Positions 2,209 through 46,287 of a stretch of DNA of 64,000 bases are shown piece by piece; positions within the stretch are counted from its first letter, which is position 1; each line of letters begins with the position of its first letter. The notes beneath the pieces were generated by a model. That model was given only the letters and a program-made list of their open reading frames with translations. It searched no databases and was not told the DNA's origin. A program made the translations under genes and the position numbers. Source of the DNA: Deltaproteobacteria bacterium (GTDB taxonomy: Bacteria > Myxococcota > UBA727 > VGSZ01); NCBI GenBank assembly GCA_016177705.1, contig JACOUT010000005.1, positions 30,374-94,373 on the forward strand, written 5' to 3'.

Positions 2209-2280
2209 GCGTCCCGCATAGCGCGCCGGCGTAGCGAGCCCAACCTGCTACCGTGTGGCAACCCTCTGGTGGAGGAGCTC

Positions 2281-4857
2281 ATGCGCCGGTTCGTGCTCGC
2301 GCTCGCCCTGGTTGTCCTCGTCGTGCCCGCCTGCTCGTGTGACACGCCGGCGTCGATCGACGACGCGGGCACTTCCGACGACGGAGGCGCGCGCGATGGG
2401 GGCGCGGACGCGGACGCGGGCGAGCAGCAGGATGGGGGCGGCGATCTCGACGCGGGAGCTGACGACGACGCGGGTGGCGGCGGGGAGGACGCTGGCCCCA
2501 CCGACGCGGGGCCGACCGCGCCCGTCATCGCGCAGTTCACGGCGACACCGTCGACGGTCGACCTGCAGGCGCCGACCTCCGTCACGTGGAGCTGGAGCTA
2601 CGCGACGCTGCCCTCGCCGACGCCGAGCTGCACCATCGATCAGGGCGTCGGCGCCGCCGCCAGTGGCGCCAGCACGCAGGTGACGCTGCTCGGCGACACG
2701 ACCTTCACGCTCACCTGCGCCAGCTCGGCGGGCAGTGACACGGCGACGGCGCAGGTCGGCACCGCGATCCGGTCATGGACGCAGGTGTCCGCTGGCTCCC
2801 TGCACGCGTGCGGCCTCAAGGGCGCGGGCGAGCTGTTCTGCTGGGGCGACAACGCGAACGGCGCGCTCGGCACCGGCACCTTCGACGACGGCATCTACCC
2901 GTTGCGGGTGGGGCTCGCCGCAGACTGGACCTCGATCGCCGCCGGCACCGGGCATAGCTGCGGCATCCGCGGCGGTGAGCTGTACTGCTGGGGCGCCAAC
3001 ACGCACGGCAAGCTCGGCGTCGGCATCGCCGTGGGCGTCCCCACCTGGGTGCCGCTGCGGGTTGGCGGCGACAGCGACTGGACCAGCGTCACGGCCGGTG
3101 AGAATCACACGTGCGGTATCAAGGGCGGTGGCGAGCTGTGGTGTTGGGGCATGAATTGGTTCGGGCAGCTCGGCGACAGCTCCATCGGCACGCAGGAGGA
3201 CAAGGACGTGCCGGTGCGTGCGGGCGGCGACAGCGACTGGACGAGCGTGGTCGCCAGTACCTGGCATACCTGCGGCACCAAGGGCACAGGCGAGCTGTAC
3301 TGCTGGGGCTTCAACAGTTTCGGCCAGATCGGCGACAACTCGACCAGCCACAAGAGCGTGCCCACGCAGGTCGGCGTCGACGCGGATTGGCGCGCCGCGG
3401 CGGCCGGCGGCGACATGAGCTGCGCTGTCAAGGGCGCGGGCGAGCTGTTCTGCTGGGGCACGGGCGAGCTCGGTGACGGCGCCACCTACCTCTCGCGCGT
3501 GCCACTACGCGTCGGCAGCGCGACGGACTGGAGCCGCGTGGCGGCCGCCCCGACGCACATCTGTGGCGTGAGGGGCGTAGGCGAGCTGTACTGCTGGGGC
3601 GGCAATAACTCCGGGCAGCTCGGCGACGACAGCGTCGCGCTCCGCCGCACGCCGACGCGCGTGGGCAGCCTCGACACATGGAGCCAGGTCGACGTCGGCT
3701 ACCAGCTTAGCTGCGGCATCCACGACGGTGAGCTCGACTGCTGGGGCAACAACGGCGAGGGACAACTCGGCCTCGACACGCCGGGCTACGCGACCGCCCC
3801 TGAGCGCGTCGGCGTCGACAGCGACTGGAGCGCGGTGGCCGCCGGTGCGCGCTTCACCTGCGGCGTGAAGAGCGGCGAGCTGTGGTGCTGGGGTGAAAAC
3901 GCGGCGGGTCAGCTCGGCTCGGGCGATCGCGTGCCACTCGCCGAGCCGGCGCGCGTTGGCGCCGCCAGCGATTGGGCGTCGGTGTCGGCAGGCGCGCTCA
4001 CGGCTTGCGCCGTCACCACGCAGCGCGAGCTGTGGTGTTGGGGCGACAACGGCTTCGGCCAGGGTGGCGTGGGCTCGCCGGGGCCGCTGCTCGTGCCGAC
4101 GCGCGTCGGCACCGACAGCGACTGGACCGCGGTGGGCGTCGGTCTGTGGGTGAGCTGCGGCGTCAAGGGCGTCGGCGAGCTGTACTGCTGGGGCAGCGCG
4201 AGCAACGGCGCGCTCGGTGACGGCACCGACGTGAACAAGCCCTCGCCCACGCGCATCGGCAGCGACGACGACTGGATCGAGGTCGTGGGTGGCGGGCACT
4301 GGTTCATGTGCGGGCGTCGCGCCGGCGGCGAGGCGTTCTGCTGGGGCAACGGCGCCTTCGGACAGGTCGGCGATGGCAGCACGCAGCAGCGCAACGTGCC
4401 GACGGCCCTCGACACCGCCAAGCTGTTCTCGTCGCTGGCGGCGGGGCAGGCGCACGCGTGCGGCACCACCACCGACGGCGAGCTGTACTGCTGGGGCGCG
4501 AACGCGGGCATCGGCGCGTCGGGCAACGCCATCCCTGCCCAGAGCCCCGTGCCGGTCGGCCTCGAGACCGACTGGGGCGTGCTCGGCGCCGGCTCCGGCT
4601 TCACCTGCGGCCTGCGTGGCCCCGGCGCGCTCTACTGCCGCGGCGCCAACGACTACGGTCAGCTCGGCACCGGCAGCCGCGATGCCGCGGTCTACGCCGT
4701 GCGCGTGGGGCTCGGCGACGATTGGCAGGACGTCGCCGCCGGCACGTTGCACGCGTGCGGCGTCCGCGCGGGCGCGCTCTTTTGTTGGGGCTCGGACGCC
4801 TCGGGTCAGCTCGGCGTTGGCCGCGGCTGGGTGCAGGTGCCGTCGCGCGTGTGGTGA
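2281..4857 (+). CDS. RCC1-repeat (beta-propeller) lipoprotein with Asp/Gly-rich N-terminal linker
   Basis: Internal ATG at 2281 gives signal peptide + lipobox 'LVVPACSC'; upstream 82 codons of the ORF are R/G-rich junk. At least 14 repeats of the 'GEL(Y/W)CWG.N..GQLG' RCC1 blade signature. Confidence 0.8.
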   Translation: MRRFVLALALVVLVVPACSCDTPASIDDAGTSDDGGARDGGADADAGEQQDGGGDLDAGADDDAGGGGEDAGPTDAGPTAPVIAQFTATPSTVDLQAPTSVTWSWSYATLPSPTPSCTIDQGVGAAASGASTQVTLLGDTTFTLTCASSAGSDTATAQVGTAIRSWTQVSAGSLHACGLKGAGELFCWGDNANGALGTGTFDDGIYPLRVGLAADWTSIAAGTGHSCGIRGGELYCWGANTHGKLGVGIAVGVPTWVPLRVGGDSDWTSVTAGENHTCGIKGGGELWCWGMNWFGQLGDSSIGTQEDKDVPVRAGGDSDWTSVVASTWHTCGTKGTGELYCWGFNSFGQIGDNSTSHKSVPTQVGVDADWRAAAAGGDMSCAVKGAGELFCWGTGELGDGATYLSRVPLRVGSATDWSRVAAAPTHICGVRGVGELYCWGGNNSGQLGDDSVALRRTPTRVGSLDTWSQVDVGYQLSCGIHDGELDCWGNNGEGQLGLDTPGYATAPERVGVDSDWSAVAAGARFTCGVKSGELWCWGENAAGQLGSGDRVPLAEPARVGAASDWASVSAGALTACAVTTQRELWCWGDNGFGQGGVGSPGPLLVPTRVGTDSDWTAVGVGLWVSCGVKGVGELYCWGSASNGALGDGTDVNKPSPTRIGSDDDWIEVVGGGHWFMCGRRAGGEAFCWGNGAFGQVGDGSTQQRNVPTALDTAKLFSSLAAGQAHACGTTTDGELYCWGANAGIGASGNAIPAQSPVPVGLETDWGVLGAGSGFTCGLRGPGALYCRGANDYGQLGTGSRDAAVYAVRVGLGDDWQDVAAGTLHACGVRAGALFCWGSDASGQLGVGRGWVQVPSRVW

Positions 4858-4897: not shown

Positions 4898-5605
4898 TCA
4901 CTGCGGCGCGGCGCAGGCGACGTTGGAGGAGTGCCCGCCGCGATCTTCGGTCCACACCGCCAGCTCGCGATCGACGCGGTCGACGCAGCCGAGCACGACG
5001 ACGGTGCCGGCAGCGGCGTCGCCCGACTGCGACAGCACAGCGTCGATCTGAAAGACGTACGGGAAGCCGACGAAGGACTGGCTCTGCACGAACACCGCGG
5101 CGCCCGAGTCCGTCGCCAGTTGCCACATGTCAGCTTCTCGATCGAGGAACGAATAGCTCACCCGCACACCTTCGAGGTCGGGGTCGCACGGCGAGGTCGC
5201 GATCACTTCCACGTCGAAGATCGCCGGCCCTCCGGCCTGCCGCGGCTGCGCGTTCGAGCCCGCGGCGCAACTGGGCGCCGCGCCACCAACGCACTGGGCC
5301 GCGGCACAGGGAGCCACGTCGCAGCAGAGCCCCGGTGCGCACGACCCATCCGTCGTGCAGGTCGGGTCGCCTTCGCCTTCGCCCTCTCCTTCGCCCTCGC
5401 CCTCTCCTTCGCCTTCGCCTTCGCCGGGTGGCGTGTCTTCTGCGCAGACGCGGTCGACGCAGTACGGCAGCGACTCGGGGCAGTCATCGTCGTCGTCGCA
5501 GCGGACGCGCGCTCCGTCGCAGCCGTCGAGGGCCGCCACACACCCGAGCGCGAGCACGACCGCGGCCACCGGAGACGGCCAGCCTCGGCGCTGCGCGCGG
5601 GTCAT
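4898..5605 (-). CDS. secreted lipoprotein: signal peptide, Cys motif, (GE)n tract (copy 1 of the recurring module)
   Basis: 'VVLALGCVAALDGCDGARVRCDDDDDCPESLPYCVDRVCAEDTPPGEGEGEGEGEGEGEGEGD', then a ~130 aa Cys-containing domain. Overlaps the upstream gene by 4 nt. Confidence 0.7.
   Translation of the reverse strand: MTRAQRRGWPSPVAAVVLALGCVAALDGCDGARVRCDDDDDCPESLPYCVDRVCAEDTPPGEGEGEGEGEGEGEGEGEGDPTCTTDGSCAPGLCCDVAPCAAAQCVGGAAPSCAAGSNAQPRQAGGPAIFDVEVIATSPCDPDLEGVRVSYSFLDREADMWQLATDSGAAVFVQSQSFVGFPYVFQIDAVLSQSGDAAAGTVVVLGCVDRVDRELAVWTEDRGGHSSNVACAAPQ
5368..5426. repeat. GGYGAR hexanucleotide microsatellite encoding (Gly-Glu)n
   Basis: 'gccttcgccttcgccctctccttcgccctcgcc...' read on the + strand; in-frame within 4898..5605. 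Confidence 0.85.
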
Positions 5606-6381
5606 GGGCCACGCTCGACGAGCAGCCCGACGCCGAGCGCGCCCAGGCCGACCACGGCCACGCCCGCCGCGACCAGCGAGAGCGCACCGAGCGGAGCGCC
5701 GTAGTCGAGGAAGCCTTGCTTGAGATTCGGATCGCCGCTCGGATCCTGGGTCGAGCCGTAGAGGATCCCGAGGGTGGCACCGAGCCCCACCGCAGCCACA
5801 GCCCCAACCGCGGCCACTGCGCCCCCTGCGACGGTGAGGGTCGGGAAGCGCGACTCCTGCGATCCGAGTCCCGCGACGGCGCTGGGCGCCTTGTCGACGA
5901 GATCCTCGATGCTCGCGGCCCGCACCGTGGTGCGGCCGAGCGCGCGCGCCGTCGCGGGATCGATGAGCGCGACGCTCAAGACCAGGCCCTCGCCGAGCCG
6001 CACCGCGCTGCCGTGGAGCACGCGGCTCGCGCCAAGCGCGGCGCCGAGCTCGGCCAGGCAGGCGTCGGTTCCCGTGTCGCAGCCGACCAGTTGCCTGCCC
6101 GCCTCAACGTCGAGCACACGCCGCAGGTCCTCCGAGGTGAGCACCTCGGTAGCCGGCGACCGTTGCAACTGTGCGGCGAGGGCGTCACGCACCAACGCGG
6201 CCTCGGCGTTCGACAGCGCGTCGCCAGAGATGTCGAGCACCAGCACGCGCAGCGGCGCTGACGCCGCTAGGAGCGCAAGGAGCGTGACGTGGCCCACGGG
6301 CCCATCCTCGCCTTCCCGTCGTGGTCGGCAAGCGGGCTTGCCGGCACGGCCGACCTTCCTCTTGAAGACCAGCGTTCGCAT
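5602..6381 (-). CDS. module partner protein: N-terminal signal, conserved CxxxxxC domain, C-terminal double Gly/Ala-zipper hydrophobic tail
   Basis: Real coding part starts around 'MRTLVFKRK...VGHVTLLALLAASAP' (ATG at 6381, or GTG at 6297). The N-terminal 87 codons of ORF 5602..6642 are Arg-rich junk. Clear paralog of 45433..46287 ('EVLTSEDLRRVLDVEAGRQLVGCDTGTDACLAELGAALGA' vs 'DVLSSSDVRRAVELEGDKRALGCAEQTSCLAEVAGAMGA'). Ends 'VAAGVAVVGLGALGVGLLVERGP'. Confidence 0.6.
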   Translation of the reverse strand: MRTLVFKRKVGRAGKPACRPRREGEDGPVGHVTLLALLAASAPLRVLVLDISGDALSNAEAALVRDALAAQLQRSPATEVLTSEDLRRVLDVEAGRQLVGCDTGTDACLAELGAALGASRVLHGSAVRLGEGLVLSVALIDPATARALGRTTVRAASIEDLVDKAPSAVAGLGSQESRFPTLTVAGGAVAAVGAVAAVGLGATLGILYGSTQDPSGDPNLKQGFLDYGAPLGALSLVAAGVAVVGLGALGVGLLVERGP

Positions 6382-6433
6382 CGTCCACGCCACAGGGCGC
6401 AGGCGCGACCGCCTGCTGGCGAGCTTCGACCAG

Positions 6434-8086
6434 TCACGCTCGTGGCGCGGCGGCGTAGTCGGGATAGGCTGGCGACCACAGCAGCGATCGGACGTGGGCG
6501 TCGAGGTCGTGCGGAGGCGGCGCGGTCGCCAGCCCGCGCGCGAACGCGACCTGCGCGACCGCGCAGGCGACGCGCACCGACACCTCGCGCACGCGCGACA
6601 GCCTCGGGAAGACGCGCCCAACCGCGAGATCGTCGTCGCCAACCTCTGCCGCCAGCGCCCGCGCCGCAGCCAGGAACATCTCGTCGGTGACTAGACGGCT
6701 GCGCGCGGCCACCACGCCAAGGCCGATTCCCGGGAAGACGTACACGTTGTTGCCCTGACCCGGCTCGATGCGCCGCCCCCCGAACGTGAGGGGCGGAAAT
6801 GGGCTGCCGCTGGCGAAGATCACGCGGCCGCCGGTGGCGTTCACCGCGGCCTCGGCGGTGCACTCGGCCTTGGCGGTCGGGTTGGAGAGCGCGAACACGA
6901 TCGGCCGCTGGTTGAGGGAAGCCATGCGCGACAGCACCTGGTCGCTGAAGGCGTTGGCCTGCGTGGAGGTGCCGATCAGCGCGGTAGGCCGCAGCGCCTC
7001 CACCGCGTCGAGCAAGGTCGAAGCCGGAGCGTGCTCGTGCGCGAAGTGCACCTTGTGGCCGGCCAGCGTGCCGTCGTTGCGAGCGCTCGTGACCAGCCCT
7101 CGCGAGTCGAACAGCCAGCATTGGCGTCGCGCGTCGCTCTCGGCCATCCCGTCTTGGACCGCGGCCGCGACGAACAGCTCGGCGATCCCGGTACCCGCCT
7201 CGCCCGCACCGAAGAACAGCAGGCGCTGCTCGCGCAACGACGTACCGCTGAGACGCAACGCGGCAACCAGCCCGGCGACGGCGACGGCGGCAGTACCTTG
7301 GATGTCGTCGTTGAAGGTGAGCACGCGACCGCGATAGCGCTCGAGCAAGCGGAACGCGTTGTTGTTGCCGAAGTCTTCGAATTGGATCAGCAGGCCCGGC
7401 CAGCGTTTGTTGAGTGCGCCGACCAGCTCCTCGACGAGCGCATCGTAGCGTTCGTCGCGTGTGCGACGACGCTTGAGGCCGAGGTAGAGCGGATCGGCGA
7501 GCAGCGCCTCGTTTTCGGTGCCGACGTCGAGCGTGATGGGCAAGCAGCGCAGCGGGTCGAAGCCGGCGCACGCGGTGTAGAGGGCGAGCTTGCCCACCGG
7601 GATGCCCATACCGTTGGCACCGAGATCGCCGAGCCCGAGGATGCGCTCCCCGTCGGTCACGACCACCACAGATGCGTCATCCTGCCAGTTGTCGACGATG
7701 CGCCCCACCCGACCTGCGTCTTCGATGGTCACGTAGAGGCCGCGGGGTCGGCGGAAGATCTGCCCGTAGCGCTCGCAGGCGAGGCCGACCGTGGGCGTGT
7801 AGACGATCGGCATCATCGTCTCGAGGTGCTCGGCCAGGAATCGGTAGAACAGGCGCTCGTTGCGGTCCTGCAGACCGATGAGCGCGATGTACTTCTCGAG
7901 GTCGTTGGGCTTGCTGTCGAGATTGTGCTTCACGCGCGCGACTTGCTGCTCCGCCGTCTGCACGCGGGGCGGCAACAGGCCGCGCAGGCCGAGCAGATCG
8001 CGCTCCTCTTCCGTGAAGGCGGTCCCCTTGTTGAACGCCGGATCGTGCAGCAGTGCGATGCCGGTCGGGAGCTGGTGGGGGCTCAT
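6434..8086 (-). CDS. maeA: NAD(P)-dependent malic enzyme
   Basis: 550 aa; 'IVYTPTVG', 'FNDDIQGTAAV', 'FGAGEAG', 'FALSNPT' malic-enzyme signatures. No C-terminal PTA domain. Confidence 0.9.
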   Translation of the reverse strand: MSPHQLPTGIALLHDPAFNKGTAFTEEERDLLGLRGLLPPRVQTAEQQVARVKHNLDSKPNDLEKYIALIGLQDRNERLFYRFLAEHLETMMPIVYTPTVGLACERYGQIFRRPRGLYVTIEDAGRVGRIVDNWQDDASVVVVTDGERILGLGDLGANGMGIPVGKLALYTACAGFDPLRCLPITLDVGTENEALLADPLYLGLKRRRTRDERYDALVEELVGALNKRWPGLLIQFEDFGNNNAFRLLERYRGRVLTFNDDIQGTAAVAVAGLVAALRLSGTSLREQRLLFFGAGEAGTGIAELFVAAAVQDGMAESDARRQCWLFDSRGLVTSARNDGTLAGHKVHFAHEHAPASTLLDAVEALRPTALIGTSTQANAFSDQVLSRMASLNQRPIVFALSNPTAKAECTAEAAVNATGGRVIFASGSPFPPLTFGGRRIEPGQGNNVYVFPGIGLGVVAARSRLVTDEMFLAAARALAAEVGDDDLAVGRVFPRLSRVREVSVRVACAVAQVAFARGLATAPPPHDLDAHVRSLLWSPAYPDYAAAPRA

Positions 8087-8262: not shown

Positions 8263-10737
8263 CTACTCGGGGTCCACGGTAAACGTCCAGCTGGTCGTGA
8301 CCGACCACCCCGGGCCTTGCATGGTCACGGTGTCGCTCAGGTTGGTCAGGTCCCCTGCGGCGGTGCCTTCGCCGGCGATGTCGTCGATCGCGAGCACTAC
8401 GGCCTCCTCGAGTGGATCGTCGACGTTGGTGGCGCAGGTGTCCAGCGTGCCGAGGAACTCGTAGCGGGCCGTGAAGGCGCCCCGCCTCGTGCCGTCGACG
8501 GTCGTGCCCACGCTGGGCTCGACGCCGTAGCCGTTGTCCTCGGGGTCGTGGCCGAACAGAAAGGTACCGCCGGTCACCGACCCGCTGCCTTGCGTCGTCT
8601 CATGGGTCTCGAGCGTCTCGTGGTAGGTGCATTCCCCGCTGCCCAGGTCGGTGTTGCGCTCCACGTAGTCGTAGGTCTCGTCATAGGACGCGGTGCCACC
8701 GGTGACCAGGAACTCCTTGGCGTAGGCCGTGCTCGAGACCAGGCGCAGCGAGTAGCTCACCTGCTGCGTGCGTACGGTCCGGCTCGTCGCCGTCGAGGTC
8801 GCGGTCACGACCGACGACTCGTTCTCGTCGCGCCGGGTCGCCGTATAGCTGCCCAAGCGAACGCTCGTCGACGTCGCGTCAGCGAGCTCGAAGCGATAGC
8901 TCGGCGTCAGCACGGTCTCCACGAAGGCGACGAAGTTGCCCGGGATGGTGCCGGTCTCCGAGGCAGTCCAGCGCAGATTGAAGTCGGTCTGTCCTGGCGA
9001 CGCTTGCACCTCGTTCGCCAACTGCAGGTTGCCGCCGACGCGTCGATAGAGGCGTACGACCGTGACGTTGTAGCCGATGACCGGGAACACCGTGCTGCCA
9101 GGATCGAGCTTGACCTCGAAGGTGACCTCGTCGGCGGGCTCGAAGGCCTCGCGATCCGCAGTGACGCTGGTGGCCACGGGGGAGCTGGCGAGCGGGTGCT
9201 TGAGCTCGAGCGCGAGCGAGAAGACGTTGACGTGCATCGAACCGAGGAAGGCGGCGAAGTCGCGGCCCGCCTCGGCGCTGGCGAACAACGACAGCTGATA
9301 GTCGCCCTTGAAGTCGACATCAGCGGCCTGGCTCTGGTCGGGCGCCAGCACGGCGTCGAGCTCGATCCCCGCCTTGCACTCGATGGCGCGCACGCGCCAG
9401 CGGCGCCAGAAGCGCGCGCCTCCTTCGATGTCGGCGAACACGAACGCCGACAATTGCGCCTCGACGGTCAGGTCGGTCGAGGGCAGGCTCGCCGGGTAGA
9501 CGGGCTTGGCCTTGCCCGTGGCGACGCCGTCGAGCTCGGTCACCGCCTCGCAGTCCGGATCGCAGATGAAGCCGACGCGCGCGTTGACGCCGACCTCGCT
9601 GGTGGCTTCGAGTCCGACGTCAGCGAACGGGATCTCGCCCGCCAGCTCGAAGCCCGCGCCGAGCGGCACGGTGGCGCCGACGACGAACCCGATCACGCCC
9701 GGCACGCCGATGTAGAGCTTGGCCAGCTCGAGCTTGCACGTCACGGAGCCCGCCAGGGCCACGCCGGCCACCGGTGTGACCTCGAGGGTGGCGCGCGGCT
9801 CGCCGACCAGCAGCATCTTCTTCAGCTGGTCGTTCCAGGTGATCTCGTAGGAGAGGCCGGTGGTGATGGTGAGGTTCGACGTGAGCAGGTTGATCTCCAC
9901 GGCGGAGAGGTCGGCCTCACACGCAAAGGGGCCGAGCGGGAACTCGGCGGCGTAGGCGTTCGAGATCGGCGCCTCGCGCGGCGTGAACCGCAACGAGCCG
10001 TCCGGCAAGCGCTCCCACGTGAAGGCCTGCTGCACCTCGACCGGCACCTCGAACGGCGCGCGCGAGAGGTCGAGCGTTGCGTCGATGTCGAGCGAGGCGA
10101 ACAGCTCGTCGAGCGGCACCAGCTCGAGCGTGACGCGCGCGCCGTCGACCGCCACCACGCGACCGCTGACCAGCTTGTCGCCGGTGCCGAGCAGCAGCGT
10201 GCCCACCGCCGGTGGCGACACGCCGGTGAGCGTGATCGCGTAGCGCGAGCCCACGTGCGGCGCCTCGTCCGGCAGCTCCGGCTCGAAGCCGTCGATCACG
10301 TCGTCGTCGTTGATGACGACGGCGCCCGCGGCGGGCACTGCCGCGACAGCGAGCACCTCGCCGGTGAGCATGGTGCCGTCGGCGCTGGTGACGGTGGCGG
10401 TGATGAGCGCGCTGCCGGCCTCGACGAGCGCGCTGACCGTGCCTTGCTCGTCGACGGCGACCACGTCCGGCTTCGCCGAGGCCCACTGCACGGCGGCCTC
10501 GAGCTCCGTGCCGGCCGCGTCGAGCAGGCGCGCGCGCAGCTCTTGGCTGGGCATCGAGGGTGTGAGCAGCACGCCGCTCGGCGTGATGACGACGCTGATG
10601 GGCGGCCCGGGCGGCGTTTCGCCTTCCCCTTCGCCCTCACCCTCGGCGGGGCCGGGCGGTGGCTCGACGCAGGCGACACCGGCGAGCGCGAGCGAAAGGG
10701 CGGCGGGCAGAAGCGCGGAGGTTAATCGACCGATCAT
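8263..10737 (-). CDS. large secreted lipoprotein with a short (GE)n tract, otherwise uncharacterised
   Basis: Internal ATG at 10737 gives 'MIGRLTSALLPAALSLALAGVACVEPPPGPAEGEGEGEGETPPGPP'. The 824 aa frame has balanced composition, unlike the antisense frame 8122..10725. Confidence 0.7.
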   Translation of the reverse strand: MIGRLTSALLPAALSLALAGVACVEPPPGPAEGEGEGEGETPPGPPISVVITPSGVLLTPSMPSQELRARLLDAAGTELEAAVQWASAKPDVVAVDEQGTVSALVEAGSALITATVTSADGTMLTGEVLAVAAVPAAGAVVINDDDVIDGFEPELPDEAPHVGSRYAITLTGVSPPAVGTLLLGTGDKLVSGRVVAVDGARVTLELVPLDELFASLDIDATLDLSRAPFEVPVEVQQAFTWERLPDGSLRFTPREAPISNAYAAEFPLGPFACEADLSAVEINLLTSNLTITTGLSYEITWNDQLKKMLLVGEPRATLEVTPVAGVALAGSVTCKLELAKLYIGVPGVIGFVVGATVPLGAGFELAGEIPFADVGLEATSEVGVNARVGFICDPDCEAVTELDGVATGKAKPVYPASLPSTDLTVEAQLSAFVFADIEGGARFWRRWRVRAIECKAGIELDAVLAPDQSQAADVDFKGDYQLSLFASAEAGRDFAAFLGSMHVNVFSLALELKHPLASSPVATSVTADREAFEPADEVTFEVKLDPGSTVFPVIGYNVTVVRLYRRVGGNLQLANEVQASPGQTDFNLRWTASETGTIPGNFVAFVETVLTPSYRFELADATSTSVRLGSYTATRRDENESSVVTATSTATSRTVRTQQVSYSLRLVSSTAYAKEFLVTGGTASYDETYDYVERNTDLGSGECTYHETLETHETTQGSGSVTGGTFLFGHDPEDNGYGVEPSVGTTVDGTRRGAFTARYEFLGTLDTCATNVDDPLEEAVVLAIDDIAGEGTAAGDLTNLSDTVTMQGPGWSVTTSWTFTVDPE

Positions 10738-10948
10738 CCTGTTTTTTCTAGGGGAGCCACAGGGGGAGGGCAAGGCGGAGCCGGCCGATCGGTCGTCCAG
10801 GTCACACGACGAGGGTCACCTGCTTCTCGCCGCGGAATGGCGCCCCAAGGACCCCGTTCGATCCTTGTCTGCCAGGGAGAAGCGCAACTCAGGAAATGTG
10901 GGACCGATAACCACCTGGCCCTACAGAACCTGCAACAAGGAAGCGCCC

Positions 10949-21036: not shown

Positions 21037-22578
21037 TCACGGCGGCGTTGCGCCAAACTCGAACGCGCCGGCGTCACATGCGCCGTCAGTGCGCAAGAAG
21101 CCGCGCTGGTCTGCAGGCGGGCAGGTGACGGACGCGGCGGCGCCTCTGGCGGGGCTGGTAGCGGCGATTGACAGCGTCGGGGTCAGGCCGCCCTGGTTCG
21201 CGACATTGGCCGCGAGCTGGGGATCGGCGAAGACGTCGCCGTAGATGATGCTGAGGCCGCAATCTGTGTCGACGGTGGGCGAGACGTTGCCGCCGAGTGA
21301 GAGGAACTGCCCGTCGTTGGCGAAACAGGTGCCGGCCGACGGGTCGTCGATGATGGAGCCGAGCAGCACGACTGAGCCGGGCGGCCCCTCTTGATCGTCG
21401 AGCCGCGCCATCGCGCCGGTGTTGCCGCGGAACGTGGTGTGCACCAGCTCGATGGTCTCGTCGCCGCAGATGAAGATGACCTCCTGGCCGGCGTTGGCGA
21501 AGAAGGTGCTGTTCTCGAAGCGCACCGTGCCCTCGGTGGCGCAATTGACGTCGATGGCGCCGCCGCGGTTGTCGCTGATGTTGCCGATGAACAGCGAGCG
21601 GCGGATCACGACGTTGGCGCCGGGCACCGCCAGGTAGAGTGCGCCGCCGACGTCGCCGGCGCGGTTGCGATCGAGGACGCAGTCCTCGAGCAGCATGGTG
21701 GCGTTGTCGTGCACGCCGATGGCGCCACCGCGGGAGTAGCCCGGCGGCGTCTCGAGCCGGTTCATCACGAACGACGCGTGGTGCCCCTCCAAACGGGCAT
21801 TGCCGAACAGCGCGATGGCACCGCCTTGGTAGTAGACGGTGTCGACCGAGGTGCTGACGTTCTGCCGAACGTCCACGTCCTCGAGCAGCAGGGTCGCGCT
21901 CGTGGTGACCACCGCGGCGGCGGCGTGGGTGGTGGAGACGCCGCCCGCCAGCATCATGGTGCGCAGCCGCAGGCGCACCGTGCCGCTCAGGACGAACAAC
22001 CGGTTCGTGCCGCCGCCCTGCAGCGCGACGCCGTTGCCCTCGATGGTCAGGTCGCCGACGTCGAGGTTGAGGCTCGAGCCGATGCCGATGGTGCTGAGCG
22101 CGGCCTCGATGCAGATGGTGGTCGGCAGCGGCCCGAGCTGGTTCGCCTCGTCGAGCGCCGCTCGCAAGGTACAGCCACCGCTTGGCGCCAGGCACGTGCC
22201 GTCTGGGGCAGCGTCCCCGTCGTCGAGCTCGGAGGTGACCTTGAACGCGCCGACGCAGGCCGGCTCCCCCTCACCTTCGCCTTCGCCCTCACCCTCACCT
22301 TCGCCTTCGCCCTCACCCTCTCCTTCGCCCTCACCCTCGCCTTCGCCCTCACCCTCGCCTTCGCCCTCTCCTTCACCCTCGCCTTCGCCCTCTCCTTCAC
22401 CCTCGCCCTCCCCCTCGCCCTCGCCCTCGGCCGAGCGGCACGCGCCCTCGACACACCGTTGCCCGGCTTCACAGTTCGCATCGCCCTGGCACGGCAGCGG
22501 CGCCAGACCAAAGGACAGGCAACCCGCGACCAGCGCGGCGAGGAGCGCCAGCGCCAGCACCCATCGGCGCCCGCTCAC
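21037..22578 (-). CDS. lipoprotein: Cys motif, ~35x(GE), then right-handed parallel beta-helix domain (copy 3 of the module)
   Basis: GTG start at 22578 overlaps the upstream TGA (GTGA): 'VSGRRWVLALALLAALVAGCLSFGLAPLPCQGDANCEAGQRCVEGACRSAEGEGEG...'. C-terminal beta-helix repeats ('NRLFVLSGTVRLRLRTMMLAGG', 'GGAIALFGNARLEGHHASFVMN', 'GGALYLAVPGANVVIRRSLFIGN', 'GGAIDVNCATEGTVRFENSTFFAN'). The upstream ~380 codons of ORF 21037..23730 are poly-Arg junk. Confidence 0.75.
   Translation of the reverse strand: MSGRRWVLALALLAALVAGCLSFGLAPLPCQGDANCEAGQRCVEGACRSAEGEGEGEGEGEGEGEGEGEGEGEGEGEGEGEGEGEGEGEGEGEGEGEGEGEGEGEPACVGAFKVTSELDDGDAAPDGTCLAPSGGCTLRAALDEANQLGPLPTTICIEAALSTIGIGSSLNLDVGDLTIEGNGVALQGGGTNRLFVLSGTVRLRLRTMMLAGGVSTTHAAAAVVTTSATLLLEDVDVRQNVSTSVDTVYYQGGAIALFGNARLEGHHASFVMNRLETPPGYSRGGAIGVHDNATMLLEDCVLDRNRAGDVGGALYLAVPGANVVIRRSLFIGNISDNRGGAIDVNCATEGTVRFENSTFFANAGQEVIFICGDETIELVHTTFRGNTGAMARLDDQEGPPGSVVLLGSIIDDPSAGTCFANDGQFLSLGGNVSPTVDTDCGLSIIYGDVFADPQLAANVANQGGLTPTLSIAATSPARGAAASVTCPPADQRGFLRTDGACDAGAFEFGATPP
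22268..22428. repeat. GGYGAR microsatellite (~27 units) encoding (GE)n
   Basis: 'ccctcaccttcgccttcgccctcaccctc...' in-frame within 21037..22578. Confidence 0.85.
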
Positions 22579-23246
22579 GGCTCGCCTCCGGCGGCGACGC
22601 CGACGATGACACCGCCGGCGATGGCGAGCAGCACCCCCGCGCCGGCGCCGACGGCGCTCACCTGCCCGACGGCGCGCAGCGCGCCGCGCTCGGCGCCCGG
22701 TCGCGTCGGATCGGCGAGCGCGCTCTCGGCGTAGGCGAGCCCGCCCGCGCCGCCGACGAGCACCACCGCGCCCGCCCCCGCCACCACCGCGCCCGCCACC
22801 ACCGCAGTCGACGGCCCGTCCTGCTGCGCAGGCGGGACCGGCGCCGGCAGCGCCTCCGGGCGCGGCAGAGCAGGGGCTTGCGCGGCGCGCTCCGCCTCCA
22901 CCTCCTGCCGCACGCTCGCGAAGAACAGCGCCACCTTGGGCGGCGCGTCGGCGTCGAGCGTGGTCTCGGGCGCGCGCAGCAGCACGTAGCGGAAGTTGAT
23001 GCGAGCCTCCAGGTCGCGCCCGAGGATGCGGTGCGCGATGCCGGCGAGCAGGTTGGCGCGCAGCTTCTCGTCGTCGCTGGCCTCGGGAGCGGTGGCCGCG
23101 CGCATCAGCTCGTCCGCCGCGATCTCGTAGTCGAGCGCCGCCATCGCCGCTTCGCCTCGGGCGAGGTGTTGGGCGGGGGTGACGGGCGCGGCGACGGCGA
23201 CGAGCGCGGCGAGCAGCAGCACGGTGGCAGCATACCGTGCGCGCAT
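22575..23246 (-). CDS. module partner (copy 3): signal peptide, TPR-like helical domain, Pro/Ala linker, double Gly/Ala-zipper tail
   Basis: ATG at 23246: 'MRARYAATVLLLAALVAVAAPVTPAQ'. Tail 'VVAGAVVAGAGAVVLVGGAGGLAYAE...VSAVGAGAGVLLAIAGGVIVGVAAGGEP'. Confidence 0.6.
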   Translation of the reverse strand: MRARYAATVLLLAALVAVAAPVTPAQHLARGEAAMAALDYEIAADELMRAATAPEASDDEKLRANLLAGIAHRILGRDLEARINFRYVLLRAPETTLDADAPPKVALFFASVRQEVEAERAAQAPALPRPEALPAPVPPAQQDGPSTAVVAGAVVAGAGAVVLVGGAGGLAYAESALADPTRPGAERGALRAVGQVSAVGAGAGVLLAIAGGVIVGVAAGGEP

Positions 23247-23362
23247 GATCCGGGCGGGGTTGTCGCAGGCGGTGCAGGTGCGCATCCTGGCTCGATGTCC
23301 TTGCGCGAAGACGTGGCGCTGCCGGAGCCGGTGCGGGACGCCCTCGACCGTGCGAGGATGCC

Positions 23363-24790
23363 GTGGTGAGCGCCGCGCGCACCGCCACCGAGACGCGCAC
23401 CTCGACGCGTCCGTCGACCGGCACCTCCACCGGCACTGAGGCGCGTCGCGCGCCCGACATCGTCGCGGGCGTGGTCGACGCCGACAAGCTGGCCGACGAG
23501 ATCGCGGCTACCTCGGTCGACCCGCGCCTGTGGACCGGCGCCTTCGCCACCAACGTCTGGGGCGGCCGCTTCGCCGTCGACGGCGTGCTCGGCGAGGGCG
23601 CGCAGGGCACCACCTTCCAAGGCACCGACCTCAAGACCGGTGGCCGCGTCGCCATCAAGGTCTTCGACGTTGGCCGCGCCAAGGACTGGAAAGCGGTGCA
23701 GCTCTTCGACCGCGAGGCCGAGACGCTCAAGAGCGTCGATCACCCGGGCATCCCCAAGCTGCTCGACGTCATCGTCGACGAGGAGACCGGCGCGCGCGCG
23801 CTGGTGCGCACGCTGGTGCCGGGCGAGAGCCTGGCCGCCGAGATCAAGAGCAAGGGGCCGCTCGCCGAGGCGGCGTTGTGGAGCGTGATCATCGACGTCA
23901 CCGACGTGCTCGGCGCGCTGCACGGCCGCTCCTCGCCCATCGTGCACCGGGACATCAAGCCGGCGAACCTGATCCGCCGGCCCGACGGCAAGGTGTGTCT
24001 GGTCGACTTCGGCGGCGTCGGCAGGATGCGCGAGGCGGCCGGCTCCACGGTGGTCGGCACCTTCGGCTACATGGCGCCCGAGCAGCTCTATGGCGCGCAG
24101 ACGCCGGCCACGGACATGTACGCGTTCGGCGCCACGCTGCTGATGCTCGCAACCGGCCGAGAGCCCGAGGAGCTGCCAAGGAGCGGCCTGTCGCTCGACG
24201 TCGACCAGGCGGCGCCCAAGCTGTCGCCCCAGTTGCGCGCGCTCGTGAAGAAGCTGACCGCGCCCGACCCGAGCGGCCGTCCGGCCGACGCCAAGGCGCT
24301 GCTCGCGGAGCTGCACGCCATCGCTGACGCCAAGGACCGTCCGGCCGTCGAGCCGAGCTGGCCGGAGCCGATGGTCGACAGCCCGTTCGCCGCGCGCGGC
24401 GTCGAGGGCGACTTCCTGGTGGGAATCGTCGGCCTGGTGTTCGGCGTGCTCGGCGTGGTCGGTGCCGTCATCGTCGGGCAGCTGCTCATCCCGCTCGTGC
24501 TCACCATCATCGCCGCCACCGCCGACGGCGCGCAGAAGGAGCGCATCCTGGCGGCGCGCGCGCGCGTCGTCGAGGCGGCGACGTTGGCGCAGCGCTCCTT
24601 CGAGCGCTCGGCGCAGCACGGCGCCAAGAAGCTCGAGAGCGCCTCCGAGCGCGAGCGCGAGCGCGCCGAGGATCGCCGCCGTCGCCGGCGTGAGCTCAAG
24701 CGCCACTGGAAGGAAGAGGAGCGACGCCTCAAGCAGCTCGCCAAGGACGCCAAGCGCTCGGCACGGCGCGACGGTAGGTTCTGGGTGTAG
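23363..24790 (+). CDS. Hanks-type Ser/Thr protein kinase with C-terminal TM helix and coiled coil
   Basis: 'VAIKVF', '[10 protein letters not shown]', 'DFG', 'GTFGYMAPE'; TM '[34 protein letters not shown]'. Confidence 0.85.
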
Positions 24791-29644: not shown

Positions 29645-29816
29645 CAGCAGGCCCTGACAAGAGCGTCGCATCGGCCGGGTGTCCGACCGAGCGCGGCGCC
29701 GCCGGCCTTGCGCTCGTCGACGTGTCGGGTACGGTGCCAGGCGTCCCGGACCAACCGGGATCATGCCGGCTCGACCGGCCAGGAACCCGGCCGAACGGCC
29801 CCCCAGGAGAGGTCAC

Positions 29817-30650
29817 ATGCGGAACGTGCTGCTTTGTTGTTCGTTGGCGTTGGTTGCGTCGGGCGCGGCGTTCGCGCAGGGCGAGGGAGAGGGCGAGGGC
29901 GAGGCCTGCGGCGCCGTCACGCTCGAGGGCGAGTGCCAGGGCACGGACGCCGTGTGGTGCCAGGACAATGTCCTGCAGCGCGTGACCTGCGCGGATCTGC
30001 TGGGTGATGGCAGCGTGGTCGGCAGCTGCGAGGTCTACACCGGCTTCGGTTCGTGGTGCGCCTTCAACGACGGCGACCCGTGCGCGTTCCAGACCCAGGA
30101 CGGCAACGCCATCTACTTCGCTTGCGCCAACGACAGCTCGGGCTGCGTCGACGGTCAGTGCACGGCCGGCACTGGCGCCTGCACGCCCGACGCGGATCCG
30201 CAGAACCCCACCGTGACCTGCCTCGACGGCGGCAACCTTCAAATCGGCTGCCAGCCCTGGGCGCAGGCGTTCGTCTACACCTGCGCGGGCATCAGCGCCG
30301 CCTCCACCTGCGCCAACGACGTGTGCGGCAACGTCGGCTCGGGCGATCCGTGCGCTGACGGCATCGCCGAGTGCGGCGGCGGCCTCTCCTGCGGCGCCGA
30401 CAACACCTGCGGTGGCGGCGGCGAGGGCGAGGGCGAGCCCGCCGAAGGCGAAGGCGAGGGCGACAACGGTGAGTGCGCCAGCGACCGCGACTGCGACGAA
30501 GGCGAGATCTGCGACAACGGCGAGTGCACCGGCGGTGGCGAGCAGCCCCCGGTGTGCAGCCACACGGCCACGAGCGCCGGTCTGCCGGCGGCGGGCCTGT
30601 TGGCGCTCGGCGGTCTGGTGATCGGCGTGCGCCGTCGCCGTCGCGCCTGA
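29817..30650 (+). CDS. Cys-rich secreted protein with short (GE)n tracts and MYXO-CTERM-like tail (array member 2, paralog of 28877..29644)
   Basis: SD 'ggagag' then ATG 29817: 'MRNVLLCCSLALVASGAAFAQGEGEGEGEACGAVTLEGECQGTDAVWCQDN' (compare 'CGTLSAEGACFGEVAAWCSEDN'). C-terminus 'PPVCSHTATSAGLPAAGLLALGGLVIGVRRRRRA'. Confidence 0.7.
   Translation: MRNVLLCCSLALVASGAAFAQGEGEGEGEACGAVTLEGECQGTDAVWCQDNVLQRVTCADLLGDGSVVGSCEVYTGFGSWCAFNDGDPCAFQTQDGNAIYFACANDSSGCVDGQCTAGTGACTPDADPQNPTVTCLDGGNLQIGCQPWAQAFVYTCAGISAASTCANDVCGNVGSGDPCADGIAECGGGLSCGADNTCGGGGEGEGEPAEGEGEGDNGECASDRDCDEGEICDNGECTGGGEQPPVCSHTATSAGLPAAGLLALGGLVIGVRRRRRA

Positions 30651-32788: not shown

Positions 32789-32798
<10 letters not shown>
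31935..32798 (+). CDS. polysaccharide deacetylase (NodB homology domain, CE4)
   Basis: GTG overlapping the dgkA TGA; 'RATLFIVTED', 'HEIASHSHRHR' (H-S-x-x-H zinc motif), 'RGFRAPGY'. Confidence 0.8.
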
Positions 32799-35017
<2,219 letters not shown>

Positions 35018-44155: not shown

Positions 44156-45274
44156 TCAGCGCCGGGCAGGCTCGAGCTTCGGCCCGCGTAGCTCGGTGTA
44201 CGACGACGCCGCCAACAGCAGGTCACCGTCCGGCGACAGGCTGACGCGCCCGTCGCCGCCCACCGGGCCCGCCCTGGCGCCGTGCGGCAGCGTCCAGCGC
44301 GCGGCCACCGGGGAGCCGGTGACCAGCAGCGTACCGTCGCGCGCCAGCGCGATCGAGCGCGTACGACCGCCGACGTCGATGGCGGCGGTGCGTTCGGCGG
44401 AGTCGACGCGCCACACCTCGGCGCGTCCGTCGAATGCGAAGGCGACGCGTTGGCCATCGGCGGTAATGGCCGAGGCGCAGCCGATCCGCTCGCTCACTTC
44501 CTTGGGCGTGAGGCGCGCGGGGAAGCGGAACAGCTCGTTGCCGCGCTCGGCGTCCCACACGACGGCGACGCCGTCGGGGCCGAGCACCGCGATCACCAAC
44601 AAGCCGTCCGAGTGGAAGGCGACGTCGCGCAACGGGCGATCGACGGCCGGCGAGCGCCACAGCGGCACGCCGGTGCCGGCGTCGAGCACCACCGCGAAGC
44701 CGCGTCGCAGCAGCTCCTCGATCAACACGTCGCCGACGACGAGACGGCCGCCGTCGGGCGCGAAGGCGATGGCAGTGACGGCGTGCAGCGACGCGGTCCA
44801 GGCCAAGCTGCCCTTGGTGGTGTCGTAGACGCGCACCTCCGGGTGGCCATGGCTCGCCACCGCCAAGCGTGCGCCGTCGGGGGAGAGCGCGATGCGATCG
44901 GGCACGCCGACCTCGGTGACGCGCAGCACCAGCGCGGCGTGCTCGCCGCGGCGCACCGGCGCGAGATCCCAGACGTGGACCTTGCCCTCGGACGACGTCG
45001 CCAGCCAGCGACCGTCCCTCGAGAAAGCGGAGGCCACCAGCGAGAACTCACCGGCCGCGCGGGCGACACCGGCCGGCGCGCGCTTCGACCGGCGACGCGC
45101 CGCCGGCTTGCGGCGCACGCCGGCTTTGGCCTTGGCCTTCGTTGTGGCCTTGGCCTTGATCTTGGTCTTCTTGCGGGCCACCGGCTTCGCGCGCACCTTC
45201 GCGCGGGCGCGTGGCTTTGGCTTCGCCCTCTTGCGGGTCTTCGCCTTCGCCGTCTTCTTCTTGCGGGACGCCAT
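44156..45274 (-). CDS. WD40-repeat protein with Lys/Ala-rich (histone-H1-like) N-terminal tail
   Basis: 'MASRKKKTAKAKTRKRAKPKPRARAKVRAKP...' then WD-like blades ('VHVWDL', 'VRVYDT', 'VAVVWDA'). Confidence 0.7.
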   Translation of the reverse strand: MASRKKKTAKAKTRKRAKPKPRARAKVRAKPVARKKTKIKAKATTKAKAKAGVRRKPAARRRSKRAPAGVARAAGEFSLVASAFSRDGRWLATSSEGKVHVWDLAPVRRGEHAALVLRVTEVGVPDRIALSPDGARLAVASHGHPEVRVYDTTKGSLAWTASLHAVTAIAFAPDGGRLVVGDVLIEELLRRGFAVVLDAGTGVPLWRSPAVDRPLRDVAFHSDGLLVIAVLGPDGVAVVWDAERGNELFRFPARLTPKEVSERIGCASAITADGQRVAFAFDGRAEVWRVDSAERTAAIDVGGRTRSIALARDGTLLVTGSPVAARWTLPHGARAGPVGGDGRVSLSPDGDLLLAASSYTELRGPKLEPARR

Positions 45275-45432: not shown

Positions 45433-46287
45433 ATGTCGACGCCGCGAAACACCATGGTCTCCCCCCGCCCCCATCGCGCGGTGGTCGCCGCGTTGCTCTG
45501 CTCGGTGCTCGGCTGCGCGCGCGCGGCCGACGCTGCCGAGCTGTCGCCATCGACGTTCGCGACGTTGACCAGCGTCATCACCGTCGCGCTCGGCCGCCAC
45601 GAGAATCTCGACGTGCTCTCCTCGTCCGATGTGCGGCGCGCCGTCGAGCTCGAGGGCGACAAGCGCGCGCTCGGCTGCGCGGAGCAGACCTCGTGCCTGG
45701 CCGAAGTCGCGGGCGCCATGGGCGCTCGGCTGGTGGTGTTCGGTCAGCTCGGCGACCTCGACGGCGAGCTGGTGCTGACGCTCAACCTCTATGACTCGCA
45801 GTCGGCGAGCGCGGTCGGCCGAGCGCTCGAGCGCGCCCCCGACTCGCGGCGCTTGGCGGCACAGCTCGAAGGAGCCGTCGACCGGCTACTCGCGCGCACG
45901 CTCTCCTCGCTCAAGGCGGGCGAGCGCCTGCGCATCCTGGTGCTCGACCTCGAGCCAGGCGCGCCGACAGCAGCGCCTGGGCCTGCCGAGGCGGCGGCCG
46001 CGACCACCTCGTCCGACGAGCCAACTCCCTGGCTGCTTTATGGCGCGGGCGCCACCGCGGGCGTCGCGGCGCTGGCGGTCGGCGTTGGTGCCGTGCTCGG
46101 CGGACTCAACGTCGCGGAGCTCGATGCCGGCGCCAAGGAGCCGCTCGCGAAGAAGGCGCTGGAGCACGATCAGGCGGCGCAGGTGCTCGGCCTCGGCGCC
46201 AACGCCTCCTTCCTCACGTCTGCGGCCGCGCTGGTGGTCGCCGCCAGTCTCGGCGCTGCGCACCTCGTCGTCGGAGGGCCGGAATGA
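45433..46287 (+). CDS. module partner (copy 2), paralog of 5602..6381
   Basis: ATG near 45433: 'MSTPRNTMVSPRPHRAVVAALLCSVLGCARAADA'. Conserved 'LGCAEQTSCLAEVAGAMGARLVVFGQLGDLDGELVLTLNLYD'. C-terminal zipper 'GAGATAGVAALAVGVGAVLGG...SAAALVVAASLGAAHLVVGGPE'. Confidence 0.65.
   Translation: MSTPRNTMVSPRPHRAVVAALLCSVLGCARAADAAELSPSTFATLTSVITVALGRHENLDVLSSSDVRRAVELEGDKRALGCAEQTSCLAEVAGAMGARLVVFGQLGDLDGELVLTLNLYDSQSASAVGRALERAPDSRRLAAQLEGAVDRLLARTLSSLKAGERLRILVLDLEPGAPTAAPGPAEAAAATTSSDEPTPWLLYGAGATAGVAALAVGVGAVLGGLNVAELDAGAKEPLAKKALEHDQAAQVLGLGANASFLTSAAALVVAASLGAAHLVVGGPE

Follow-up and report, generated by a model that had tools for sequence, protein, structure and literature searches.

Overlapping Genes on the Minus Strand

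A 64,000-nucleotide (nt) stretch of DNA from a member of the Myxococcota (contig JACOUT010000005.1, positions 30,374 to 94,373; referred to here as the window) carries, on its minus strand, two open reading frames (ORFs) that overlap by 4 nt. The upstream gene, at 5602..6297, encodes a 231-residue protein with a C-terminal helical hairpin, called here the partner; the downstream gene, at 4898..5605, encodes a 235-residue lipoprotein with a Gly-Glu (GE) repeat. Together they constitute a real two-gene, translationally coupled cell-envelope cassette of the Myxococcota. The features established for it are the anatomy of the two products, purifying selection on both genes, their 4-nt overlap, the presence of the same pair in relatives, and a strong enrichment of lipoprotein genes behind partner genes. 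An initial annotation, made from the sequence alone, had placed both ORFs on the minus strand next to malic enzyme; they lie where it put them, and the malic enzyme gene (Pfam Malic_M, E 7e-92) adjoins the module directly upstream of the partner gene. The partner lies in a long ORF, 5602..6642.

The partner gene had been read from ATG 6381, with GTG 6297 as an alternative, and the latter is probably the true start. A 92%-identical homologue is annotated from MGHVTLLALL, a ribosome-binding-like GAGGA motif (6305..6309, minus strand), read from the sequence and conserved in the metagenomic contig L086, stands 8 nt upstream of GTG 6297, and the 28 codons (84 nt) between the two candidate starts differ from L086 by three non-synonymous and no synonymous changes in the ATG frame; the choice of GTG follows from these observations, although the substitutions on which it rests are few.

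With a G+C content of 67-75% across the whole window and long overlapping ORFs in all frames where it reaches 71-73%, the two genes could be suspected of having arisen by chance, through high G+C content and a low-complexity repeat that was read out of frame or on the opposite strand, the more so as the antisense frame of the GE repeat encodes (SP)n. Such an origin is scarcely credible, however, and is refuted by the Cys framework that is conserved among homologues along with the lipobox, by a partner family with thousands of relatives, and by substitutions skewed toward synonymous ones; the partner also yields a confident fold model. L086, which is 94% identical in DNA, preserves the order of malic enzyme end, partner, and lipoprotein with the ATGA overlap. 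Its codon differences in the partner gene number 28 synonymous and 16 non-synonymous, with one amino-acid change in residues 1-129. In the lipoprotein, the signal peptide is very variable (14 amino-acid changes), and the four-Cys head described below has one change. This pattern of substitution indicates that both genes are under purifying selection on the minus strand.

Anatomy and Fold of the Partner Protein

The partner begins with a short hydrophobic, signal-peptide-like N-terminus, MGHVTLLALLAASA (6256..6297, minus strand, as are all coordinates of the pair), and its homologues likewise have 15-25 hydrophobic residues ahead of a conserved RVLVLD strand; the cleavage site is a predicted one. 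Residues 15-145 (5863..6255) form a predicted TolB-N/LpoB/CsgG-like alpha/beta domain. It contains a Cys pair, C73 and C80 in GCDTGTDAC (6058..6081), that is invariant in alignments A1 and A2 and probably forms a disulfide. The signal peptide and the invariant Cys pair argue for a location outside the cytoplasm. Residues 153-228 (5614..5841) make up a Gly/Ala-rich helical hairpin with the polar tip QDPSGDPNLKQGFLD, its helices being modelled at 153-184 and 190-228.

An AlphaFold2 model built from 11 sequences (mean predicted local distance difference test score, pLDDT, 79) depicts a beta-alpha-beta-alpha-alpha-beta3-alpha domain followed by the long helical hairpin, and on this model the N-terminal domain has the alpha/beta sandwich of the TolB_N-like fold group. 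The best structural matches of this modelled domain are CsgG, PelC, a FlgO-ring protein, TraT, and LptE, which are mostly ring-forming and outer-membrane-associated. At the sequence level, partner 1 (the partner of this pair) has no Pfam match at E<=1 and none above threshold in the Pfam or NCBIfam scans, including TolB_N (PF04052), LpoB (PF13036), DUF3280 (PF11684), FlgO (PF17680), and CsgG (PF03783), and a sequence search of the PDB with the family profile returned no related entry. Multi-domain relatives do match the DUF3280, TolB_N, LpoB, FlgO, and CsgG models, often alongside PEGA domains, and some of the DUF3280, TolB_N, and LpoB matches are above threshold; certain relatives carry the label 'TolB-like protein' in IMG.

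A lipobox was found in only one of 133 family members. The partner signal thus appears to be of type I, leaving the hairpin as the sole membrane anchor. Hairpin architecture is common to 128 family members, in which a tip of about 20 residues connects two hydrophobic helices. This tip is net acidic (2.2 Lys plus Arg and 3.8 Asp plus Glu per approximately 20 residues), and its density of Lys plus Arg is slightly higher than that of the flanks. The energies predicted for membrane insertion on the Hessa scale are marginal, and much the same values were obtained for another membrane protein of the window, used for comparison. The hairpin does not resemble Gly-zipper outer-membrane lipoproteins of the SlyB/Pcp type: there is no match to their Pfam models, no lipobox, and the glycines are irregularly spaced instead of following GxxxG. 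By parsimony, the membrane is taken to be the inner one by default, given the type I signal, the lack of a lipid anchor or beta-barrel, and the rarity of alpha-helical outer-membrane anchors. A terminal Glu follows straight after helix 2 in 71% of partner proteins, often as G-G-x-E or G-E. The final partner codons hold GGAGG-like strings just 5' of the overlapping lipoprotein start at 5602..5620 and at the two comparable junctions of the window (46270..46287 and 22575..22595), and part of the C-terminal conservation may stem from the ribosome-binding site of the lipoprotein gene.

Anatomy of the Lipoprotein

The lipoprotein opens with a type II signal peptide (5519..5605) containing two lipobox-like sites, ending at C22 and C29; these read LALGC and ALDGC in the window, and L086 has a canonical LAGC. 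C29 is invariant in the six homologues of alignment A3, and so the conserved, predicted lipidated residue appears to be C29 and not the first Cys. Next comes an anchor-proximal head with four Cys (C36, C42, C49, and C54; 5444..5500), then a polyanionic (GE)9-GD tether (5366..5425), a second Cys-rich knot (C83, C89, and C105; 5291..5359), and a C-terminal cargo domain (residues 125-235, 4901..5233) with C140, C207, and C231. The initial annotation had described the lipoprotein as CDDDDDCPESLPYCVDRVC followed by 13 GE units; the head is indeed present, but the array consists of nine GE units (5372..5425) and then GD. From C29 onward, all of these Cys are invariant in A3, the homologues of which include P0010, P0011, P0013, and two proteins in L004, and the length of the GE array varies among them. 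The hexamer units of the array are just 84% alike in DNA, which speaks against its being a pure microsatellite.

The initial annotation had suggested a structure prediction for the C-terminal domain; a low-confidence model of the lipoprotein (pLDDT 54) depicts the cargo as a beta-sandwich resembling immunoglobulin (Ig) or FN3 domains, and the head is predicted to be a small knot with two disulfides. Nothing above threshold, including any toxin family, was found for the lipoprotein in Pfam or NCBIfam, matches of the GE array to Pfam Trypan_PARP being compositional only. A PDB sequence search with the family profiles gave no significant match, the best being a marginal one of the head to a knottin (E 0.009). 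The head shows weak similarity to knottins as well as to TIGR04201, a family considered further below.

Repeated Modules Within the Window

The head and tether recur within the window. Six of its proteins contain a GE array, and in four of them a lipobox is followed by the head, as matched by the head profile, and by 9, 27, 33, or 36 GE repeats (4898..5605, 21037..22578, 32789..35017, and 46284..46793, respectively). Their cargo is unrelated, comprising the Ig-like sandwich, a CSLREA/beta-helix/choice-of-anchor-Q region, a large duplicated domain with an MXAN_6577-like Cys-rich insert, and almost nothing. In three of these four cases, the gene before the lipoprotein gene encodes a protein with a Gly/Ala-rich hairpin at its end, and all three junctions overlap by 4 nt: ATGA in the cassette itself (5602..5605, minus strand) and in copy 2, and GTGA in copy 3. 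Such overlaps of stop and start codons point to translational coupling.

Copy 2 comprises the partner gene at 45433..46287 (plus strand) and the lipoprotein gene at 46284..46793 (plus strand), the product of which has the head, 36 GE units, and a 50-residue tail; the latter gene is bounded at both ends by ATGA overlaps. The two partners had been proposed to be paralogues, about 50% identical over roughly 80 residues. The identity is lower, at 34% over 116 residues, with 39% in the best 80-column and 42% in the best 45-column window. The alignment that had been recommended as a check nevertheless covers ordinary non-repetitive sequence and is significant (E 2e-12 by composition-adjusted BLASTP), contrary to the refuting outcome named beforehand, a similarity confined to low-complexity regions, and a phmmer search with the partner against six-frame segments of the window found just two matches, partners 1 and 2 (2e-11 and 3e-10). 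From these results, the paralogy is real and independent of the Gly/Ala-rich tails. Both proteins do end, as had been noted, in two Gly/Ala-rich hydrophobic helices. The lipoproteins of the two copies gave no significant BLASTP alignment (E 10), in keeping with the earlier remark that the C-terminal part of lipoprotein 1 is different; the likeness between their heads is therefore at the level of motif and architecture, namely a lipobox, four spaced Cys, and (GE)n. The observation of a shared head on different cargo was borne out both by the four window lipoproteins and by L001, in which a similar head is joined to a TIG/FG-GAP protein. Shuffling of cargo domains, as suggested at that time, would be an evolutionary explanation of this pattern.

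Partner 2 departs from partner 1 in that the first strand, RVLVLDL, is missing at the N-terminus and present after the domain (ERLRILVLDLEPG, residues ~170-186), as is also the case in P0008 and L011; such an order suggests that the TolB-N-like domain has been circularly permuted within the partner family. The N-terminus of partner 2 also has a lipobox-like SVLGC beside an AXA site. The possibility that this raised, of the partner itself being a lipoprotein, was ruled out at the family level by the single lipobox among 133 members.

Chained to copy 2 is a third gene, 46790..47734 (plus strand), the ATG of which overlaps the stop codon of the GE lipoprotein gene (ATGA). Its product is a 314-residue secreted protein with a signal ending in SARA/DG and no Pfam or NCBIfam match; it includes a 'GTLPINRGGTG' stretch that may resemble phage tail-fibre proteins. 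Divergent from partner 2, the gene at 44156..45274 (minus strand) encodes a WD40 beta-propeller protein with a Lys/Ala-rich, histone-H1-like N-terminal tail of about 75 residues.

Copy 3 consists of a partner-like gene at 22575..23285 and the lipoprotein gene at 21037..22578 (both minus strand), the latter encoding the head, 27 GE units, and the CSLREA/beta-helix/choice-of-anchor-Q cargo. The partner-like protein has a similar terminal hairpin and a different N-terminal domain, which is helical and TPR-like in place of the TolB-like one. Comparison with the other partners by hhalign (E 1.4e-3, probability 18%) covered only the first transmembrane helix and the loop or tip, and the protein could not be demonstrated by this means to be a homologue of the family; only the hairpin architecture is held in common. 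The gene is divergent from an adjoining membrane Ser/Thr kinase gene (23363..24790, plus strand; Pkinase 1e-36), and the partner homologue in L001 is likewise near a PEGA-containing kinase.

The remaining head-bearing lipoprotein, with 33 GE units (32789..35017, plus strand), has no adjacent partner, its upstream gene being that of a polysaccharide deacetylase. In its cargo, a domain of about 250 residues is apparently duplicated around the MXAN_6577-like insert (8e-13). A secreted Cys-rich protein encoded at 29814..30650 (plus strand) has four GE units right behind its signal peptide. GE repeats recur at its C-terminus, together with a TIGR04201-like knot (E 0.014) and a tail that, at 18.9 bits, falls just short of the MYXO-CTERM cut-off of 20. 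As the same knot and GE spacer here stand beside a MYXO-CTERM-like anchor, the stalk they form is a general anchor-proximal element, mounted in this protein at the opposite end.

Around the cassette itself, a large lipoprotein with 13 RCC1 repeats (RCC1-like domain, 7e-113) and an acidic linker rich in D and G is encoded at 2278..4857 (plus strand), convergent on the 3' end of the lipoprotein gene across a gap of 40 nt. Just upstream of the malic enzyme gene and on the same strand, 8263..10773 (minus strand) encodes an 836-residue lipoprotein with four GE units right behind the lipobox Cys, no four-Cys head, and a weak Big_2 domain. The gene content of the window is one of typical myxobacterial envelope proteins, such as the RCC1-repeat lipoprotein, the protein with the MYXO-CTERM-like tail, and Ser/Thr kinases. 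A scan for sigma-70 promoters found nothing, the sigma-70 model being uninformative for this phylum.

Relatives Beyond the Window

The nearest genomic relatives of both genes are found in metagenome-assembled genomes (MAGs) of uncultured Myxococcota. A word-index search returned nine matches for the partner and four for the lipoprotein. The impression of a rare partner family that this gave was overturned by an exhaustive profile search, which recovered 12,469 cluster representatives at E<=1e-3, 748 of them at E<=1e-30, mostly of 230-300 residues and of one architecture over their full length. When one genome per species was scanned, 450 partner relatives were identified, nearly all in Myxococcota MAGs and with many paralogues per genome.

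The pair is retained across relatives with only 46-58% partner identity. In L004, two tandem lipoprotein genes come after a partner orthologue (51% identity), and their products share both head and cargo with the lipoprotein of the cassette; a partner with a lipoprotein of the same head and cargo is also present in L006 and L008. L001 has a similar CP.SLP.C head fused to an 865-residue TIG/FG-GAP protein after the partner homologue. Further lineages carry different low-complexity spacers in place of (GE)n, including GGS-like, DAGV, and TDGGQ repeats.

Adjacency was scored with a simple detector, which called a lipoprotein gene if its start fell within -40..+60 nt of the partner stop. A lipoprotein gene directly followed 19 of the 31 hairpin-ending relatives, 12 of these 19 being at an offset of exactly -4, and the four-Cys head was present in the downstream lipoproteins of 12 of the 31. 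As a control, the ends of 1272 further long ORFs from these loci were scored in the same way, giving 3.9% for lipoproteins and 0.4% for heads. Hence, lipoprotein genes are enriched about 16-fold after partner genes, and head-bearing ones about 100-fold. Over 16 pairs, partner similarity tracked head similarity (Mantel r 0.78, p 2e-4), a correlation that is inflated by near-identical orthologues and so is taken to denote inheritance of the pair as a unit and nothing more.

In L070 and L080, PEGA-containing relatives of the partner have, in place of the hairpin, one transmembrane helix rich in Trp. Lipoprotein genes lie at +1 or -4 behind them, but the encoded lipoproteins lack the Cys head. The link between TolB-like proteins and lipoproteins may thus be broader than the hairpin subfamily.

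Proposed Function of the Cassette

Domains with a TolB-N-like fold are usually periplasmic docking or ring-forming units: TolB-N binds TolA and LpoB binds PBP1b, while CsgG, PelC, and TraT form rings. On balance, we infer that the two products of the cassette join in the envelope as a stoichiometric complex, the lipoprotein being a tethered display protein that the partner docks or escorts. The first gene would provide a secreted protein that holds its TolB-N/LpoB/CsgG-like domain, with the Cys pair, outside the cytoplasm and its C-terminal hairpin in the (inner) membrane. The second, begun inside the stop codon of the first, would provide a lipidated Cys, the two-disulfide knot, the (GE)9 tether, the second knot, and the Ig/FN3-like sandwich. 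Made in a fixed ratio, the two products would form a complex in which the partner, embedded in the membrane, would dock or escort the anchor-proximal head and thereby either fix the position of the lipoprotein or aid its arrival at its destination. The charged, disordered tether would keep an interchangeable binding domain away from the membrane.

A number of points weigh against this proposal. The complex is deduced indirectly, from gene adjacency and conservation; the hairpin is placed in the inner membrane by default only, its tip is acidic, and its insertion energies are marginal; the lipoprotein model is of low confidence (pLDDT 54); the simple detector found no downstream lipoprotein for 12 of the 31 hairpin relatives; and the Mantel correlation is inflated, as described above. 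Moreover, the lipoprotein orthologue P0010 (in L005) has no partner within 5.3 kb, nor does 32789..35017 have an adjacent one. The pairing is not obligatory.

The existence of head/GE lipoproteins without an adjacent partner would suit a simpler situation, in which the two proteins share an operon and the envelope but act independently, the head and GE array being a generic stalk that needs no partner; the same knot and GE spacer beside the MYXO-CTERM-like anchor of 29814..30650 also favour such a stalk. This is possible but unlikely: the enrichment of lipoproteins (~16-fold) and of heads (~100-fold) after partner genes and the 4-nt overlap kept in distant relatives are hard to square with it, as is retention of the pair between relatives of 46-58% partner identity. 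More doubtful still is an arrangement in which the partner oligomerises into a ring in the manner of CsgG, PelC, or TraT, its hairpins span the outer membrane, and the knot/(GE)n lipoproteins are exported to or displayed on the cell surface, with the acidic N-terminal region as the export signal. The best structural matches of the N-terminal domain, being mostly ring-forming outer-membrane-associated proteins, are consistent with this, as are the net acidic hairpin tip with its little positive-inside bias and the cargo types, choice-of-anchor Q, beta-helix, and TIG/FG-GAP being typical of surface proteins; TraT, in addition, joins the same kind of core to two outer-membrane transmembrane helices (PMC12658005). 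On the other hand, transmembrane helices are very rare in outer-membrane proteins, the partner lacks a lipid anchor (a lipobox in 1 of 133), the hairpin of TraT is inserted within the core while that of the partner is C-terminal, and the density of Lys plus Arg in the tip, slightly above that of the flanks, fits an inner-membrane hairpin. By analogy with TraT, it could be imagined further that the Myxococcota have a hitherto unrecognised system for surface display of lipoproteins, in which the partner family supplies the membrane-spanning subunit, with TolB-N-like rings on a TraT-like alpha-helical hairpin barrel, the knot and tether as recognition signal, and adhesin or enzyme domains exchangeable on a common stalk; we consider this a similarly long shot.

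A polymorphic toxin cassette of the SitBAI kind, comprising an accessory protein and a lipoprotein toxin delivered by outer-membrane exchange, has the same layout, with an accessory gene for a type I signal protein that overlaps a lipoprotein gene of conserved N-terminus and variable C-terminus (PMC5562445; PMC8546572). That the present genes are such a cassette is very improbable. No toxin or nuclease domain was found in Pfam or NCBIfam, and the cargo is predicted to be an Ig-like sandwich; the head has about 25 residues compared to an escort domain of about 375; no immunity gene follows, the next gene being that of the convergent RCC1-repeat lipoprotein; and SitB was predicted to be a beta-barrel that lacks detectable homology (PMC5562445).

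The docking or escort function, if correct, would bear on the sorting of lipoproteins in myxobacteria, about which little is understood; in Myxococcus xanthus, the proposals are limited to two rules, one assigning lipoproteins with Lys at +2 to the inner membrane and the other those with Ala at +7 to the matrix (PMC3222651). With many paralogous copies in each genome, the cassette is a testable candidate for a device that positions or displays lipoproteins, and it would account for the mounting of diverse adhesin-like domains (Ig-like, beta-helix, and TIG/FG-GAP) on a common anchor. Were the two genes to encode merely co-transcribed envelope proteins, their description would still be useful for annotation by defining a large family of TolB-like, hairpin-anchored proteins (12,469 representatives) and an anchor-proximal stalk module.

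Comparison with Known Systems

Neither this pair nor bacterial lipoproteins with GE repeats nor a hairpin-anchored TolB-like family was found described in the literature searched, which included work on DUF3280/COG5616 and on myxobacterial TolB-like proteins. Its parts are of known kinds, namely a TolB-N-like fold, a lipoprotein, and a disordered tether, and the cassette they make up is widespread among myxobacteria and apparently undescribed; no described system matches it, and SitB/SitA, FlgO/FlgP, and TraT are analogies only. TolB has a beta-propeller that the partner lacks, LpoB, CsgG, and PelC are lipid-anchored whereas the partner is not, and the C-terminal helical hairpin of the partner is present in none of TolB, LpoB, CsgG, PelC, FlgO, and DUF3280. 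FlgO and FlgP of Vibrio are outer-membrane-associated flagellar ring proteins encoded in one operon, and they differ from the present pair in their flagellar context and in that the cassette lipoprotein is unrelated to them; Myxococcota are not known to have flagella.

TraT, the surface exclusion protein of IncF plasmids (PDB 9E2V) and a homodecameric ring, is like the partner in combining an LptE/TolB-N-like alpha/beta core with two membrane-spanning alpha-helices, which in TraT lie in the outer membrane, a very rare arrangement for outer-membrane proteins (PMC12658005). TraT is itself a lipoprotein, however, whereas partner 1 lacks a lipobox and hence the N-terminal lipid anchor of the TraT type; the hairpin of TraT lies within the core and is joined by a four-residue loop, it has an extra beta-hairpin, and no sequence similarity was found between the two proteins. 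The SitB/SitA(I) genes of Myxococcus, compared here by gene organisation only, resemble the cassette in that the first gene, for an accessory protein with a type I signal, overlaps that of a lipoprotein with a conserved N-terminus and modular C-terminus. Pairing of SitB with SitA is frequent but not obligatory (PMC5562445), as is that of the partner with the lipoprotein. Unlike the cassette, SitBAI includes a toxin, an immunity gene, and an escort domain of about 375 residues (PMC8546572), which exceeds the 235 residues of the entire lipoprotein 1.

The head shares the C-x5-C-x5-C-x4-C spacing of the Myxo_Cys_RPT family, TIGR04201, members of which form long repeat arrays in contrast to the single anchor-proximal copy seen here. 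Against the cut-off of 25 bits for this family, lipoprotein 1 gave no match, lipoprotein 2 reached 13.4 bits (E 0.066), and the knot of 29814..30650 gave E 0.014, both matches falling short of the cut-off. The tether, finally, has counterparts in the procyclins of trypanosomes (EP/GPEET repeats), which form lipid-anchored acidic repeat coats, and in the disordered N-terminal tethers of other lipoproteins. In these, as in lipoprotein 1, a domain is projected from its lipid anchor by a spacer that is long, charged, and of low complexity; what sets lipoprotein 1 apart is that its spacer stands behind a four-Cys knot and that its gene is coupled to that of a dedicated membrane partner.

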